From assembly GCA_964016885.1 (NCBI GenBank), contig OZ024741.1:86056001-86120000 (forward strand): DNA of 64,000 bases. Reading direction: 5' to 3'. The position numbers and the translations under genes are program-made. This stretch comes from Eledone cirrhosa (lineage: Eukaryota). Below, in pieces: positions 5,531 through 57,879 of this stretch. A model generated the notes under the pieces. It did not search any database. It saw only the letters and a program-made list of their open reading frames with translations, and was not told where the DNA came from. Every line of letters starts with the position of its first letter. Within the stretch, counting starts at the first letter, position 1.

Positions 5531-5719
5531 ATATATATACAGTTTCAGCCATCCGGCTGAGGCCGTGCTGGGGCACCGCCCTTGTTGCTACATATTTTAT
5601 CGCCAGCCTGCATTGGTTGGCCACTGGTGCAAGAAGGAGTTTGTTGCTTCTGCCCTTAGTATTGTTAGTTGTGGGGTGGGCCAAGGGGGTGGGGCGGTGA
5701 AAAGGAGGAGTGTTAGTGG

Positions 5720-6605
5720 TGTTTGTGGGGGATGTGTGGGAGGTCGAAGGCTAAAGGAATAGGGGTGGGGAGTTCAGGCCGCGGGGGGGGGGGAGTCTGT
5801 AGGGTGAAGATGGTGCGTTGTTCGAGCGTGAGGGGGGTGGCGGGTGTTCCATGGCATTGGAGTAGGCCACAGACTGTGAGGTAGTGAGCGGAATGTCAAG
5901 GGGAGCCAAAGTGGCAGGCGATGGGGGAACTGCCACTGAGACGAATATCCCGGAGGTGTTCAGTGAAACGGTCCGCCAGGTGACGCCCAGGTTGGCATAG
6001 TTTGGACCCATTCTTGTGCTCATGGCTACCCCTGTGACCTGTTGGTAAAACTCACCCGACGAGAAGCAGTTGAGGGTGAGGACCAGCTCGGCGAGGCAAA
6101 GGAGGGGGGGGGGGTGGAAGAGATGGGGGAGGGGCGAAGGTCGAGGTAGTGCCGGAGTGCACGTAGGCCATCGGCGTAGGGGATGACAGTATAGAGGGAC
6201 TTGATATCTAGGGTGAAGAGGATGGGGTGTGGGCCAGGTGGGAAAGTGAGGGAGTCGAACAGGCGAAGGGTGTGGTTGGTGTCAGAGATGTGAGAGGGAA
6301 AGGTGGTGACGAGGGAGGCGAGGATAGAGTCAAGAAAAGCAGGTGCAAGCTGAGACAATAGGGCGGCCGGGGTTGTCGGGTTTGTGGCATTTGGGGAGGA
6401 AGTAGATAGTGTGGGTGCAGACGATGAGGTGGGAAGCGGTGGGAGGGAGGAAGGAGGAGGAGATAAGGTGTTGGATGGTGGAGGAAACTTGTTGTTGGTA
6501 GAGCGGTGTGGTGAGTGTAGAGGGCTATAGAAGAGGGGGTTACGGAGCTGCCTGAGAGCTTCGGCCGCCACACCACCACGGCGCCTCCCTTGTCCGCCGG
6601 TTTGA
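5720..6605 (-). pseudogene. Penelope-like element RT plus GIY-YIG C-terminus, internally deleted and frameshifted
   Basis: TLDIKSLYTVIP, ELVLTLNCF, QQVTGVAMSTRMGPNYANL, then VARHF...H...EQRTIFTLQT..PRGLN across frames. Confidence 0.85.
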
Positions 6606-6655
6606 TGACGATTCAACTTGGATTGCCTCGGAAACATAACCTTATTATGTAACAA

Positions 6656-6729
6656 GCTGTCTGATGATGTCACGACACTCGCACACAGAACAGTGTGGCC
6701 AGTGTCGTCATTGAAATATATATCACAGC
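6656..6729 (+). ncRNA. Type I hammerhead ribozyme (copy 1)
   Basis: GCTGT / CTGATGA / helix II (ACGACACT..AGTGTCGT with inner CACAC..GTGTG) / GAAA / TATATA / TC / ACAGC. Helix I GCTGT:ACAGC is perfect. Confidence 0.85.
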
Positions 6730-7920
6730 ATTATTATTAAAGGACTTGAACATCTGAAACTACTTCGCTTTTACTTATTCGATATTTACTCCGTCACTCC
6801 TATGTGGAAAAAGTACGTTGAGTGCTTGAATTGAATTGCATCAATGTTTACCCTAAGAATTTAGCTCCAATTAGTTGAGCGCTCTATGATGTAACCGATA
6901 TGGTGGAGAAGAGAGGAACCAACCATGAGCTACCCCTGGAAATTCCCTCTACCATGGGGATGGAAACCCCTGACACTGGACGGACATAATAGTAACTTTC
7001 GGCAGGATAAATACGCGGAAACAAAAACTAAGATAAACCCATATTTTCCTGCACCAAATCGTTTTTGAACAGAAGCCCCCTCAATTCAATCTATACATTG
7101 ACAAATTGACAATCATATGGATCATTTTGCATATATGTACTGTGTTTTTGCATTTATTCATTATTGGTTCTTTTCTTTTGTGTACTTTATATCTGTTTTC
7201 CTTTGGTTTTGTTCCATGTGATGGAAATTATGACTGTGTACCAGATTGACTACTGCCTTGAATACTGTAGTTTACCCTCCGTTCTAATGTACGGCACTAT
7301 CGTTCAATATGTGGATAGTGTAACTGTGACATTGGAACCCCTCTCAGAACTTCTTACTTAAACATCTCTCTCCATATTATTTACTCACTTCAATCTATGT
7401 TTTTTTACTCACCTCAATCCGGATTCACTTGAAAAATTTTTTAATTTCTAATTTTTGATTTAGGATTTTAATTTTTATTTCCAACTCTCACTCATAACTT
7501 CCAATGTAAAACCATGATACCTAGAATTAAGTATATTTTCTCTTGGGAGTTGATGGTCAGTCGTACTGTCCATGCTTGGTGAGAGGTAGTATTGTGACCT
7601 GTAAAAACTAACACTCTCCCATCCCCTCTGGCTTTCGGCTGACTGCCACAGACGGGACGGGTAGCAGTAAACTATGGTACAGGCCTAAATGGGTCATTGT
7701 TTGGCTGAGAGGGTGAACTGACTAAGCGAATTTCGTTGAAATCGGCGGTAGCTAATGGTCAACTTCCTTCGGACATACGCCTGCACAGAGCTGGGGGGGG
7801 GGGGGGGGGGGGGGGGGGTACTCACGGGAACTGATGAAGAACCCAAAAGCACACACTTCGTCCGTTCCCATGTGGATTCAACTTGGATTGCCTCGGAAAC
7901 ATAACCTTATTGTGTAACAA

Positions 7921-7994
7921 GCTGTCTGATGATGTCACGACACTCGCACACAGAACAGTGTGGCCAGTGTCGTCATTGAAATATATATCACAGC
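7921..7994 (+). ncRNA. Type I hammerhead ribozyme (copy 2)
   Basis: Identical to 6656-6729. Confidence 0.85.
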
Positions 7995-8054
7995 ATTATT
8001 ATTAAAGGACTTGAACATCTGAAACTACTTCGCTTTTACTTATTCTATATACAT

Positions 8055-10575: not shown

Positions 10576-11530
10576 CTATAGCACCTCTTTGTAGATGATA
10601 TTGCGTGTCATCCCTTGAGGAGTGTTAGCAAAAAGTCCATTCCTGCTCCCTATGCGGGAACAGGCAACATAAAGTTGGCCATGGGAGAAGCATGGCTCCC
10701 CCAAATGGATGCCCACCACCGACAATGTTTGCCCTTGTGACTTGTTAATGGACATGGCAAAACATGGTCTCACCGGGAATTGGGATCGCCGGAAATCGAA
10801 CGGGATATCTGACGCCGAGGGGAAAAGGTTCATCCTTGGAATGAAAACATTCTCCCCTCTCCCGCACCCTATTACAATGGTGGCCTCAATCAAGTGGGGT
10901 GTCAGTGACTTGACGACCATGCGAGTACCGTTGCACTGCTTTGGTGGACGCAAGTTCCTTATTAGCATAATGGGACAGTCAACCCTAAGCTTAATAATGT
11001 GAGGTGGGAGCCCTGGGGGCTCAAGGGAATTTAATAACTCAACCGGATAATTAACGATATCGTCGGGGTCTGACGTCCGGTCGATAGATTTGAATATGTG
11101 CTCTTTACCGGGTATTTTCTCAATCAGCTGCTCGTTAATAAAATTAACCATGCTATTTTTCGGTGCAAGGATGGCTCTTTCGCTGAGCCAATCGAGGTTT
11201 TTAAAGTTAGATGAGACATCAGGAAAAACTGCTTCCCAAAGGTCAGAAGGGCTGCTCACAATGTTTCACAGGGAGTCGATTGCTATGCCGCCCTTGTCAT
11301 CCGCAGGGACCTTGCCCTCACCAAGTGCTAAAATGTTCTGAGCAAATGCTGCAGACATGTTGTCACCATGCAAATGAGCACACATTTGTGCTCAGGTACA
11401 AACTCTTCACCTGGAGCCACAACATGGACGACTTAAGGCAGGCACGCACTTCATCAGCTCTTGTCCCTTTGGGGATGACAGGCAGCGTTTGCCGAAAATC
11501 CTGATAGCAGAAGGGTTACGCCACCCATAG
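10576..11530 (-). pseudogene. Helitron Pif1-family helicase C-terminal region
   Basis: DFRQTLPVIP, ERAILAPKN, PIMLIRNL, CNGTR, RSQFPVRPCFAMSINKSQGQTL, FSHGQLYVACSR. Confidence 0.92.
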
Positions 11531-11539
11531 GAACCGTAG

Positions 11540-11830
11540 AATCCCTAATAGGGCATTTTATTTGGGAGGTGGGGGGTGTTTTTTATTTGGAATCCGTTTT
11601 TTATTTGGGGGGGGATGTCCGTTTTTTATGGGGTGGGGGCGTTTTTTATTGGTGGGGGTCCGTTTTTTATTGGGGGGTCCGTTTTTATTGGGGGAGATCC
11701 GTTTTTTATTGGGGGGGATCCGTTTTTATTTGGGGGGAGAAGGGTCCGGTTTTTATGAGGGGGTGATCCGTTATTTAGGGGGGATCCGTTTTTTATTTGG
11801 GAGGTGGTGATCCATTTTTATTGAGGGGTG
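11540..11830. repeat. G/T-rich minisatellite (~19-bp CCGTTTTTTATTGGGGGG units) inside the Helitron
   Basis: More than ten degenerate units; related units at 49400-49460. Confidence 0.85.
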
Positions 11831-13094
11831 ATCACACTTTTGAAGCAAAATGGCAAAGAGTTCCCGTAGACCTTTAGGTGATTTCAACAAAGCACCTTCT
11901 GCTAAAGTGGAATCCCATTGCGAATCATCTTCCAAAAGACCTTGCTTAAAGCAGGCTTCCCGGTACGTATCACATATTTCTCCATCAACAGTTTTGAGGT
12001 CCTGAAAACTTTGTGGGCCTACAACTTTATGCAGAAGAAGGCTGAGATGAAAGCACTCATGCTGACTTGGGGGCACAGTGTAAACCCTTCCAAGACAGCT
12101 GTCAAATTTTACACCAGGATGTCTTTCAACAGCCTGACCTGACTTCTTCGCACCCAAGTGTTTTTCGACCATATAAAGTAGGATGGAACCTGGGGGTACA
12201 CAATTGTTTGCACAAATGTATCGAACTGGTAAAGTTTGAAGAAACCCGTCAGAGTGGTCTCTTTCGGATCGGCAGCCAACTTGGTGGCGGTTTGGTCCGT
12301 AAAGTAAACCCTTTGCCCATTTTCCAAATGTACCGCAAGCTGTACGATGGCGGGGTGCCGTTGGTGTAGGGGTAAACCAAATAGGCGCCAAAGAGCTTCA
12401 TTGCTACTGATGTACCGCCCCGCCAGGTATTCTGTGACCTCGTCCCTACTATTTTCAGCTTAAAATGCGAACATTGCGGCATCAGAGCCCTTATTTACAT
12501 ATTTGCATATGTATTTTATCGACTTGACGGAGTTGCAAAACTCAACGTTGATGTGGGCGTTGAACATCTTCAAGAGAAGCGGGCAGTAAGGGACCACCCA
12601 TCTATTGTCGACTTGACCTCCCTTTACTGTTGTGGTGAAGTCACCGTTCTCGGGCCGTCTCCGCCTGTACAGGTGGTACCCGTCGCCACCAGTCTGAGTC
12701 TGGTCAACAAACCTTTTTGGGTATCCCTTACTGCACGACCCCTTTTCAGATACGTGTGATACTCATTTGGACCCAACGCACACGGACCATGTTAGCTTTG
12801 ACGATGTCATGTAATTCCTGGTCAGTTGCTGGGTTAGGGATTTCAGCCGAAATGAAGGTCTATGGCATTTGAATTGATTTTATCAGCTAACCAAATCAAA
12901 ATGTGAGCATGTGGCAGCCCTCGTTTTTGCCATTTGACGGTGAACATGTCACATTTTACAGCCCCAAATACCTGACCCTTTTTGATTAAAGCCATGAGTT
13001 TAGCCAGTTTCAGTCTGAACACTCTGGGAATGAGGTCATGTCTGTTCGAATAATTTTGCCCAGGAAAAAGTTCACGGGTTACATTCCGATTCAT
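11830..13094 (-). pseudogene. Helitron Rep (HUH) fragments
   Basis: WQKRGLPHAHILIW (motif 2), HINVEFCNSVKSIKYICKYVNKGSD (motif 3), ENGQRVYF, GPQSFQDLKTVDG..TYREAC..GLLEDD. Confidence 0.9.
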
Positions 13095-53137: not shown

Positions 53138-53335
53138 GTTAATGGTTTCTGATATAGGCACAAGGCCAGCAATTTGGGGGGAGGGGAAAGTCGATTAAAT
53201 CAACCTCAGTGCGTTATTGGTACTTTATTTTATCGACCCGTAAGTGATGAAAGGTAAAGCTAACCTCAGCGGGACTTGAACTCAAGATGTAAAGGGCCGT
53301 AACTCTATGCCACTACCGATACTGCCAATTCACCC
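53138..53335 (-). mobile_element. tRNA-derived SINE (family A)
   Basis: Reverse-complement homology to 49100-49287. Confidence 0.82.
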
Positions 53336-53469: not shown

Positions 53470-54960
53470 GTCTGACACTTTTTGCTCTGACCACACTAAG
53501 AATATTATGAGGTCTTGGCTGATCTTCGACTCAAGCATTCCGAGCCACCCGCAGACGTCAGACCCATACCTCTACCCGATCCTCACCTGTTATATGTGGC
53601 CTTTGAGACAGACATAATCCCTGCCGTGAGATCTTTATTGCTTGCAGCAACGGAGAGGCCGACAGTCCAACCCGGCCATCTCAAGGATTTGATGTCTCCC
53701 CTTATTGCCAAGGCCGGGCACCGCCTGCTGAACGCAATTGTGACATCCATAAACAGGTTCATTTATGGCGCTCTGGACACTTATTCTCGAGACCTCTTCT
53801 TTTCAACCAGCCTGGTCGCTCTTAGGAAGAAAAACGGTGACATACGCCCTATCACTATGAGTAATGTCTTAAGAGGGCTAATTGCCAAGGTCATATGCAA
53901 GTCCATCGCCTCTGAACTGAGCGAGGAACTAAGCCCAGTGCAGCTAGGGATCGGCGTGACTAGCAGGTATAAGGGGTCTGCCCACACCGCTAGGCAGGTC
54001 TTAAAGACTGCTGACACGAGCCGGCGACGAAGATCCAGACATCTCATCATTAAGTTAGAGATGAAAAATGCCTTCAACTGTCTGCGCCGTGACCACTTGC
54101 TCGAGCCTTATCTCAAATATGCTCCCTTCGCCTAACCATTGGCCTATCTGTCGTACGGGTCTCCGCGCATAAAGTTATATCATCTCCCACCGGTGTTCAA
54201 CAGGGAGATCGATTGGGGCTCTTCCTCATCACTTATGGAATAGACAACGTTGCTCAGAGCATCATGGCTCCGTTCAACGTCTGGTACATCGATGACTCAA
54301 TGGTCGACGGGCTCGTAGAGACTGTCTGTCACTATCTCCGACTGGTGGTACCCGCTCTGATGAGGATCAGCTTTGAGATTAAGACATCTGAGGTCATGGA
54401 CGTCAATTACGACGCAAAGGGCTAAACAGCTTCCATCTCAGATGTGCGACCAATACTCCACTGGGCGCAGGTGACCCCGAAGGAAGACGTACTTATCCTC
54501 GGTTCTCCAATCCTTCCGCCTTCCATCCGTTCGATCCTTAGGTCCAGACTTCACCAGCTCGAAATACTTATGAACAGACGGAACCTGATCAACGCGCAAT
54601 CGGCACTCTTCCTGTTGAGTAATTGCTTTCGCAATGCTCCCTGCTAGTCAGGCATCTCTCCTCACAGATCTCGACGGCTGTACCCAGCGCGGTATGAGGA
54701 GATACGCAACGTCAAGTTTGACTAGATCGGGTGGCAACAAGCCATTTCACTCGTCATAACCTGTGACTTCAGTCTCCAGTTTTAATGGCTTTGCCGGCAT
54801 TTCTTTTGTCTGCGTCCTCCAGTCGTATCTTCATCAAAAAAGTTCTCCACAGCACAACAAAACTTGCTGTGATCGAGGAACACGTGGCGGCCTATGCAAC
54901 CTAAAACCAGCTCGGCTTCCGCTCTGCGATCGTCCTACCCCACCTTTCTGAACACGTCCA
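53470..54960 (+). pseudogene. Degenerate CRE-clade non-LTR retrotransposon RT
   Basis: LVALRKKNGDIRPI, PVQLGIGV, KLEMKNAFNCLRR, GVQQGD, WYIDD, ILGSPI, with stops and frameshifts. Confidence 0.85.
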
Positions 54961-55099
54961 GACTAAAATCCAAAGAGGCCTCGATAAGGATAAATATATA
55001 TAAGAACGGTAGAGCAAATATTTATTAAAATAACAGATTAAAGTTTAAGCAAAGAATCGCTGCTTTCACCCTTAACGGGATCTTCTGAAATATATATAT

Positions 55100-56489
55100 T
55101 TAGGTTTGTTGGTTCACCCCCCCCCCTTATATACTTATCCTTGTACTCATTAGTGCATGACCCTAGAATATTACTCTCTGTACCCTTATATCTGTTCATC
55201 TTTATTCACTCCCCTTACCCACTCAAGATTCACACTACGTATAACCCGGACTAACTGGGGACTAACTATAGTCTATTGACACATTTCATCAGATTTTGCC
55301 ACTTTTAAACTTCACATCACGGGTGTGAATAATTAATAATCGTTTGGTACACACGATGATCCGACGGATATGGCAGCTTTCCCGACTGCACGCCAGGCGC
55401 TCGGGTCGATCAGCTTTCATAAAATGCTTGGAAAAATTAAATTTCCCCTTCTTTCGGTAAACGAATATACTCGGAACGGCTGTTTCGCCCTGGGGCCCTG
55501 TCAGACTTGGAATACGCCATGCAACCGGGTATTGACCGCCAAACAGTACCTTTAAATTCTAGGCTTAATCATAACTTTTAACTTTATCATGCCTCCTTCT
55601 ACTAGCACTCAACTAAATTCCCCAACAGTGTGAATAACTAGTAATCGCTAGGTATATACGATAGCCAGCTGACGGTGGCGGACTTCCCGCTAGCACACCC
55701 GGCGCTTAAAACAGTTAACATTCCTGGAGTGCTTGGAAAAATAAATTTCCCTTTCTTTCGCTAGACGAAAATACTCGGAACGGTTGACACGCCGTTGGGC
55801 CCCGGGCTGGCCGGGGGGTCTGCAACGTCACTGGTTAATGTCCGCTAAGCATGGGCTTAATCTTTACTCCATATTCCACCCTGAAACTTTATCGTGACTA
55901 TATATGATACACTTATACTTTTTCTTAAAAGCCTCCTTCTGTAAATTCTTTAACTTAACTCCCAACCTTAAACCTAAATGTTACTTTTCTAATTTCCTCT
56001 TAAATGGCATCTTTTAACTCTAAACTTAAATTTAACGTTTCTAATTGCTAATCGTAATTTCTGACCATACAATGTACTGTGCTGACGCCATATATATAGC
56101 TTTGTTAAGGAAATATCTTTTTTGGGAAAAATATTTTTCGTGGCACTTTCTAGCACTCCTGACCAGCTTGAATGTAACCTGATCTCACCGCTGGCCTCTG
56201 TCTTTGACAGGGTGGTAGTAGTACACTATAAGCCTACGCCCCTCCACCACAAGGACATAAGTAGACTTAATAATCATCACTTGAGGGCGGTTGACCGGGC
56301 TAGTAGCTGCTAAATGGTCGGCCGCCCTCATGTCTCTGATTTCAGCACCATGGATTTTGTCTATTATATTCCTTTGTTATATTTCGAATACCTGATGATG
56401 TCACCGGATTCATACTGAACCCGGTCACTGAAATGATCATAGTATAATAAACCTTTTAAGGAATTACACTAGTCCAGCCACCTGTTATT

Positions 56490-56490
<1 letters not shown>
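55100..56490 (+). mobile_element. Non-coding structured element ending in an HHR, related to 6610-8045
   Basis: HHR with the same TGTCAC..GTCAYT helix-II base; shared GGTAGYAGTAMACTAT motif; bounded by TA-rich tracts. The 5' boundary is uncertain. Confidence 0.65.
56388..56445 (+). ncRNA. Type I hammerhead ribozyme
   Basis: ATAC-CTGATGA-TGTCACCGG..CCGGTCACT-GAAA-TGATCA-TA-GTAT. Confidence 0.82.
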
Positions 56491-56518
<28 letters not shown>

Positions 56519-56521
<3 letters not shown>

Positions 56522-57822
56522 AAGAATTAATATCTAGTAACATATATATACATACAGATGCATATCAATGCTAGCAAATATATAGGTTTTGTCTTAGTAA
56601 CTTTGTGGTTCAATGCATGGGGTTGCAGAACAATAATATGAGAGACGTAAAATAAGAAAATTATAAAATTAGCTTACTTACTAAAATTTCACTCCCAACT
56701 AATTAGTTTCTGAAATGGAATAAATATACTTTCCGAAGAAAATATGGAGAAGCATTTCGTCGTCAGGGAAGACTATTCTCAGCTAAGTATCCAGGCAAAG
56801 CGTGGACTCTGGAAACTTATACAAAAATAATTCAGTGGATAGAAAATAGCAAAGCGTGGACGGAATTCCTAGCCATTGAGAAAATCACTGCCTCTGCGTC
56901 GGTGGCAAATTCAAAAAGAATCAATCACGTGACATCGAGGTCAATCAGTGGAAAGTGGTTTGTTAATAAGACAGCGGCCTGCCTGCTACCATAGCAGCAG
57001 TCTTGGCCAATATTGCTCGACAAATAATTTGGAGATAATTATAAAGAATTAATATCTAGTAACATATATATACATACAGATGCATATCAATGCTAGCAAA
57101 TATATAGGTTTATTTTTGTATAAGTTTCCAGAATCCACGCTTTGCCTGGATACTTAGCTGAGAATAGTCTTCCCTGACGACGAAATGCTTCTCTATATTT
57201 TCTTCGGAAAGTATATTTATTCCATTTCAGAAACTAATTAGTTGGGAGTGAAATTTTAGTAAGTAAGCTAATTTTATAATTTTCTTATTTTACGTCTCTC
57301 ATATTATTGTTCTGCAACCCCATGCATTGAACCACAAAGTTACTAAGACAAAACCTATATATTTGCTAGTATTGATATGCATCTGTATGTATATATATGT
57401 TACTAGATATTAATTCTTTATAATTATCTCCAAATTATTTGTCGAGCAATATTGGCCAAGACTGCTGCTATGGTAGAAGGCAGGCCGCTGTCTTATTAAC
57501 AAACCACTTTCCACTGATTGACCTCGATGTCACGTGATTGATTCTTTTTGAATTTGCCACCGACGCAGAGGCAGTGATTTTCTCAATGGCTAGGAATTCA
57601 GTCCACGCTTTGCTATTTTCTATCCACTAAATTATTTTTGTATAAGTTTCCAGAGTCCACGCTTTGCCTGGATACTTAGCTGAGAATAGTCTTCCCTGAC
57701 GACGAAATGCTTCTCCATATTTTCTTCGGAAAGTATATTTATTCCATTTCAGAAACTAATTAGTTGGGAGTGAAATTTTAGTAAGTAAGCTAATTTTATA
57801 ATTTTCTTATTTTACGTCTCTC
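56519..57822. repeat. 522-bp unit in tandem with an inversion (~2.5 copies)
   Basis: 56519-57040 followed by a restart at 57041-57110; 57111-57822 is a reverse-complement tandem copy with very few differences. Confidence 0.9.

Positions 57823-57879
<57 letters not shown>

Follow-up and report, generated by a model that had tools for sequence, protein, structure and literature searches.

The window analysed here, a stretch of 64,000 nucleotides from the AT- and microsatellite-rich genome of Eledone cirrhosa (3.0 Gb in 1796 contigs), raises the question of why a hammerhead element without a coding frame carries two diverged copies of one domain, and of what the RNA of this domain might do. A sequence-only reading of this DNA had located two such copies, D1 and D2 (Table 1), and had seen in them a selected structured RNA module. 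Both copies are present with the short anchors listed for them and align nearly gap-free, the family majority letters of D1 and D2 being 71% identical; one of the anchors, TGCAAC, is not conserved. The minimum-energy fold of D2 has a z-score of -3.9, with none of 200 shuffles as good, and it contains the GGAAA/TTTCC and TCG/CGA hairpins that had been pointed out, as well as one of the two long helices described for that copy (P2 in Table 1). The D1 of the window folds no better than shuffles (z -0.2) because it bears 12 differences from the subfamily majority, two of which (55422 and 55424) break the apical helix. When majority letters are folded, D1 and D2 (z -2.3 and -2.4) give an identical nested rod with an apical three-way junction, with 41 pairs in common, nine of them with changed letters and two of those changed on both sides. 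Two further pairings were not recovered: CCAGGCG/CGCCCTGG forms no helix above 10% probability in D1, and the ATCG/CGAT hairpin, a competitor of the basal helix, does not show up in older families. The loops of hairpin A (55435-55441 and 55740-55745) read AAUAAA, AUUAAA, AGUAAA or ACUAAA in most first-copy families; the list of polyadenylation variants is easily matched by A-rich loops.

Table 1. Features of the window in and around the domain-bearing element (positions count from the first letter of the window; folds are predicted).
Feature	Position	Strand	Details
Decayed non-LTR reverse transcriptase, neighbour outside the element	53500..54900	+	Pfam RVT_1 match under the cut-off (E=0.002)
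Piece of the terminal repeat of a Hydra-type Penelope-like element, autonomous and abundant (candidate helper family)	54960..55090	-	abuts the window copy
Inverted scrap of the element's own 3' tail at the 5' junction (Penelope-like inversion)	55100..55118	-	100% match to the L014 tail
Family A element, 5'-truncated copy of a ~2.1-kb non-coding hammerhead-to-hammerhead type	55127..56497	+	extent common to 29 further genomic copies; fuller units L010, L014, L030
Domain D1, genomic copy decayed	55324..55572	+	predicted nested rod 55342-55544
D1 apex, P7/P8 and three-way junction	55416..55476	+	hairpin A 55430-46 (A-rich loop), hairpin B 55452-66 (GUAAA loop)
Domain D2	55629..55862	+	predicted nested rod 55647-55850; P2 55663-74/55826-36, P3 55678-87/55814-23
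D2 apex	55721..55780	+	P7 55721-24/55777-80, P8 55727-31/55772-76
D2 apex hairpins	55735-50 (hairpin A), 55756-70 (hairpin B)	+	predicted fold
Minimal type I hammerhead	56388..56445	+	core CUGAUGA 56392-98, GAAA 56430-33
3' end motif CTGTTATTTTATAAT, running into (AT)n	56482..56497	+	near-identical motif terminates Hydra-type autonomous elements

The element that carries the two domains, referred to here as family A, was delimited from its genomic copies. With 55300-55880 as DNA query, 40 of 1680 candidates were scored, and all 40 were near full length at 88-100% identity. Thirty loci have in common a stretch that sets in near 55127 and extends past 56497; the 5' ends of these 30 copies, which were chosen for holding both domains, are scattered, none being fixed at the domain. 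In fuller units (L010, L014) the distance from hammerhead to hammerhead is ~2.09 kb, and these units have no reverse transcriptase match, their longest stop-free stretch being 143 codons. The monomers of ~2.1 kb are mostly dispersed and 5'-truncated, and are not the short (<1 kb) monomers of tandem arrays. Family A copies bear the marks of Penelope-like elements, namely inverted or partial tandem ends, (TA)n junctions and an optional tail. The best reading of these sequences is a high-copy, non-coding, hammerhead-bearing and non-autonomous element of Penelope-like or large retrozyme-like kind. The decayed reverse transcriptase upstream of the window copy was ruled out as a part of it, being found beside none of the 29 other copies. 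A third GC-richer block lies 5' of the hammerhead (56140-56350), with a z-score of only -1.5 for the fold of its family majority; motifs resembling it occur in old families and perhaps also in the first element of the window.

The hammerhead has a stem III of 2 bp, a palindromic GAUC loop and a predicted cut after A56441. Stem I covaries between families (ATAC/GTAT, ACAC/GTGT and CTGT/ACAG), loop III covaries as well and stays palindromic or nearly so, and the hammerhead pattern matches the genome 6520 times, against 147 matches in the control. Minimal type I hammerheads have been described for Penelope-like elements (PMC4209133). Among 18 scorable family A copies, nine end 56-66 nt and eight 208-224 nt past the core; one of the 18 is without a TA run. 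These two 3' end sites parallel those of the anole element, for which two reverse transcriptase start sites and a tail in an AC-rich stretch past the hammerhead are reported (PMC11167929). In that element, the sole Penelope-like one studied in vitro according to the same report, the RNA required for insertion sits just past the hammerhead, so that a separate site for the reverse transcriptase would not be required (PMC11167929). The motif GAGTGCT is found in the domain apex and also in the tail that follows the hammerhead in families A and C (L010 tail), and its complement lies just 5' of the start codon of a Hydra-type element (L228:1340-1360).

With a model built from young copies, a diverged form of the domain was detected next to a hammerhead variant, and iterated searches led to about 20 domain families; a strict apex pattern has 611 matches in the genome and none in the control. 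Tandem domains are old (e.g. L125, L182, L186, L203). In the tree, D1 and D2 of family A stand apart from the old second copy, and the domain has therefore been re-duplicated or converted. Two first-type apexes, 710 and 284 nt apart in L308 and L309, suggest further independent re-duplication. At least one domain is retained, and the second often decays or is lost: 11 of 24 matches to an old second copy span only its first ~70 nt, and 7 of 40 pattern-picked loci, with one common junction, have no second-type domain after the first. Families E, F and H, which are derived, have lost ~20 nt from the 3' arm and pair the rod anew. The domain is not needed by all elements of this sort, since the unit between the hammerhead cores at 6661 and 7926 is without it and has only the hammerhead start in common with family A. 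This second non-coding unit of the window (6560-8040) measures 1265 bp and belongs to an abundant family; beside it lies an inverted reverse transcriptase fragment (5650-6620) of a Penelope-like family whose full-length relatives carry another hammerhead. A link of family A to the window's first hammerhead element and its reverse transcriptase was likewise rejected, only the hammerhead start being common.

Outside this genome, the strict apex pattern had no match in viral and metagenome contigs, and a loose pattern had none in viral and 34 in metagenome contigs, none of which reached a model E<0.35 and which were treated as chance; as these collections hold few animal genomes, they do not bound the range of the domain. 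Comparison with Rfam, which had been proposed as a check, matched no family over the domain, whether the whole window was searched at gathering score or 55100-56600 and 12 loci at E<=10. The Rfam matches elsewhere were microsatellite hairpins and one inserted tRNA-like repeat.

In most families, the domain is predicted to be a nested rod of ~200 nt that ends in a three-way junction, from which two short hairpins project. The 46 pairs derived from young copies were tested on an alignment of 47 sequences, 45 of which come from older families. This structure pairs 64.9% of the cells, against 35.0-52.5% when it is slid along the alignment, and its covariation score of 0.120 was reached by 1 of 500 shuffles (0.100 with a slide of +1). 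Counts of double-sided changes on the 47 sequences were not above shuffles (33 and 62 of 500). A per-column scan of 19 family majorities yielded no significant pair and none with more than two compensated branches, the top pairs lying outside the helices; no column pair stands out in such a scan because the helices slide in register. When the arms were compared free of any alignment, co-evolution did emerge: the duplexes formed by a family's own arms were 9.9 kcal/mol better than the additive expectation, 18 of 19 families being negative, and a 12-lineage subset gave -10.6. None of 100,000 permutations was as good, a value that is optimistic because the families are related, and no more than 3 of 19 rows had the own arm as best partner. 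In 17 of 20 families (10/11 and 7/9), the fold of the plus strand, on which the hammerhead lies, is better than that of the minus strand. Individual compensations are seen in hairpin A (GGAAA/UUUCC to GGGAA/UUCCC, in 1 of 20 families), in hairpin B (UUCG/CGAA to UACG/CGUA via a U-U intermediate, and also to UCUC/GAGA) and in P3 (UGGCGG/CCGCCA to UGACGG/CCGUCA). The apical helix is absent from the minimum-energy fold in 3 of 9 derived-family folds, and shuffles fold as well as the D2 of families E, F and H.

This predicted fold, a nested rod with an apical three-way junction, replaces the pseudoknot around a multibranch domain that had been proposed from the sequence. In the window subfamily, TGGCGGAC (55676-83) is indeed complementary to GTCCGCTA (55840-47), and 6 of these 8 bp are found in all young copies; in the shortened families E, F and H, the strands of the crossing helix form the basal helix, although nested. 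However, the crossing helix pairs in only 43.7% of the cells of the 47 held-out sequences, a value equalled or exceeded by 500 of 500 shuffles, one of its pairs is broken in 22 of 28 young copies, and it excludes P1 and P3. In the predicted fold, its 5' strand pairs with 55814-23 in a helix that is longer and nested, and the nested partner is stronger than the crossing partner in 18 of 19 families, though it was tested with a longer strand. A knot of this kind, such as an Xrn1 block or a frameshift-type knot, is the least probable of the readings considered here. A near-invariant core within a retrozyme-like RNA, matching no Rfam family, could also be that of a new ribozyme, for instance a ligase or a second nuclease working with the hammerhead. 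This is quite improbable: most of the conserved bases belong to ordinary helices and A-rich loops, a pseudoknot is not supported, and the 5' ends of the 30 copies, selected as they were for both domains, do not fall at the domain.

Conservation is concentrated in the apex. Compared with families E and F, family A is 86-94% identical in the apex and 31-78% in the other parts; across 19 families, the mean identity is 0.80 in the apex against 0.54 and 0.56 in the arms. After insertion, private non-CpG changes in 26 copies affect the apex (101/2816) and the linkers (95/2805) alike (p=0.72). An apex that is kept between families but mutates like linker once inserted indicates that selection acts on source elements and not on host loci. 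We infer that the domain is kept for helping source elements to spread rather than for a use of the loci by the host. Letters are conserved even at paired positions, as would be expected for a binding site. A domain with no function at all, being either the remnant of a coding frame or a GC-rich inverted repeat that hitch-hikes, would be in keeping with the lack of any single significantly covarying pair and with the frequent loss of the second copy, but is very improbable given the apex conservation and the co-evolution of the arms. A coding origin, which the sequence-only reading had itself named as a competing explanation, fails because only 2 of 66 family frames are stop-free, these being in different frames, and because loop lengths vary by single bases (6, 7, 8 and 9 nt in hairpin A). 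The description of a selected structured RNA module in a hammerhead element thus stands, on conservation between families, arm co-evolution, the lack of an Rfam match and the lack of a coding frame.

A candidate for the mobilising element is present among the autonomous elements of the genome. This abundant one carries RWR, DKT and CxCx5C motifs and intact ORFs, and has the (TA)n target in common with family A; these motifs fit the description of the Hydra clade (PMC8557442). The last letters of its copies before (TA)n are CTGTTATTTTAATAA, an end that nearly matches that of family A. This common end motif and the terminal repeat fragment next to the window copy make a Hydra-type helper likely, and family A is probably mobilised by Hydra-clade Penelope-like elements, an assignment based on a motif of ~15 nt that is rich in A/T. 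In the 3' UTR and terminal repeat of the Hydra-type element (L254-L265), the hammerhead core is a variant that reads CAGAAGA instead of CUGAUGA, and directly 5' of this core the element has a diverged tandem duplication of its own, ~125 nt long. In 105 autonomous-element loci (519 kb), no apex match better than E=7.7 was found. At locus L239, a decayed Penelope-like ORF ends ~330 nt 5' of D1, where it is cut short at the junction; the domain was nevertheless rejected as the 3' UTR of an autonomous element, the L239 junction being absent from 29 of 29 relatives and the 105 loci containing no such case. The neighbourhood of this ORF would also agree with a cap-independent translation element (an IRES or a 3' enhancer) derived from an autonomous ancestor, as would the GNRNA-like loop in hairpin B of first-copy lineages. 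Such a loop binds eIF4G in the BTE, a 3' cap-independent translation element (PMC3597692). The BTE moreover resembles the domain in that its GNRNA-like pentaloop closes a short hairpin, which stands at a junction and is carried by a variable scaffold. Unlike the BTE, the domain has neither the 17-nt consensus nor an ORF, and its loop is not kept in second-copy lineages. A translation element is improbable: the junction truncates the ORF of L239, whose family has the domain in 0 of 29 other copies, the 105 loci have no apex match, the domain is under selection in ORF-less families, and an IRES is disfavoured because the unit holds no ORF to serve.

Several functions had been listed for the module at the outset. 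Among them, a recruitment scaffold fits best; an IRES lacks its ORF, and nothing positive speaks for a ribozyme or a nuclease block. We propose, with a probability of about one half, that the nested rod with its conserved apex is a protein-docking module that aids copying in trans by the Hydra-type reverse transcriptase/endonuclease. The RNA of the element would be transcribed and would fold as the predicted rod, the variable part of which would merely hold up and space the invariant 60-nt apex, its stem sequence and length being free. The A-rich loop and the GNRNA-like loop of the apex would then bind a conserved protein, and this binding would raise the odds that an uncapped, ORF-less RNA meets the helper protein; the latter would subsequently prime at one of the two sites ~65 and 210 nt past the hammerhead. 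As sampled autonomous elements lack the domain, a host factor (a ribosome-side or export factor) is slightly favoured as the docked protein over the helper reverse transcriptase itself.

A related possibility, which we put forward tentatively, is that large retrozymes have evolved a dimeric, Alu-like docking RNA of their own, the three-way junction of which captures the telomerase-related reverse transcriptase directly, or its ribosome, as CR4/5 holds TERT. CR4/5 of telomerase is a polymerase-binding, Y-shaped RNA with a three-way junction on a stem. In the Alu dimer, which docks through SRP9/14, a non-autonomous retroelement has a tandem structured domain that is better kept in its first copy and absent from the helper. 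Family A is likened to Alu in its working only, as it has no 7SL/SRP homology (no Rfam match); unlike for Alu, no host parent RNA was found for family A, and both the fold and the helper are different. Penelope-like reverse transcriptases are described as the sister group of telomerase reverse transcriptase (PMC8557442), and the flavivirus SLA is, like the predicted domain, a stem topped by a three-way junction (PMC11098461). Unlike SLA and CR4/5, the domain is internal and far from the priming site, and it has no sequence or Rfam similarity. If direct capture of the reverse transcriptase or of its ribosome were true, Penelope-like elements would have in this domain their first defined module for recruitment in trans.

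The domain might instead stabilise the uncapped, unspliced, hammerhead-cut RNA or promote its nuclear export, with no bearing on the encounter with a helper. Export elements of retroelements are long rods with conserved loops that work better in tandem; the rod and loops of the domain are reminiscent of them, and an RNA without an ORF under selection on source elements would agree with such a role. The lack of an Rfam match and the spread of the window's other hammerhead unit without the domain speak against it, and we consider it rather doubtful, although sequence data cannot separate it from docking. A domain that merely stabilises or exports RNA would be a modest addition to transposon biology.

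Whichever protein is docked, the docking module proposed here would belong to an element close to two known kinds. Like the animal non-LTR retrozymes, non-autonomous Penelope-like elements described in PMC7229834 and in a preprint (bioRxiv 10.64898/2026.07.22.740005), family A is non-coding and has at either end a type I hammerhead whose loop III is palindromic, and it occurs as dispersed monomers and partial tandems. Its unit of ~2.1 kb contrasts with the ~300 bp given for retrozymes (PMC7229834) and with the 51-972 bp given in the preprint, where repeats were searched with a period <=1000 bp (bioRxiv 10.64898/2026.07.22.740005). Unlike retrozymes, family A has discrete conserved domains between G-poor linkers, and its copies are mostly 5'-truncated instead of forming long tandems. 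With the Hydra-clade elements, as described in PMC8557442, it has in common (TA)n targets, hammerhead terminal repeats and inverted 5' pieces; unlike them, it has no ORF and a different hammerhead sequence, and its domain is absent from the sampled autonomous loci. No description of the domain was found in the openly accessible papers searched, and the supplements of the preprint could list similar families (bioRxiv 10.64898/2026.07.22.740005). The domain would thus appear to be an RNA motif new to Rfam, in a larger, modular form of a known kind of element.

By what means Penelope-like proteins pick up hammerhead elements that have no ORF is an open question, one such protein alone having been studied in vitro according to PMC11167929. 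The present genome supplies a compact conserved core of 60 nt, about 20 natural variants whose rods are compensated or shortened, and a candidate helper whose ORFs are intact; the question of pick-up is therefore directly testable. Other repeats surround the element in the window. Beside its 3' end (56513-57826) lie three copies (98-99%) of a 300-480-nt segment, in direct and inverted orientation. On its 5' side, 53207-53310 is a dispersed short repeat with more copies within the window and in many loci. Further away, the minus strand of 10576-12397 holds pieces of a helicase-like ORF, which we take to resemble a Helitron.
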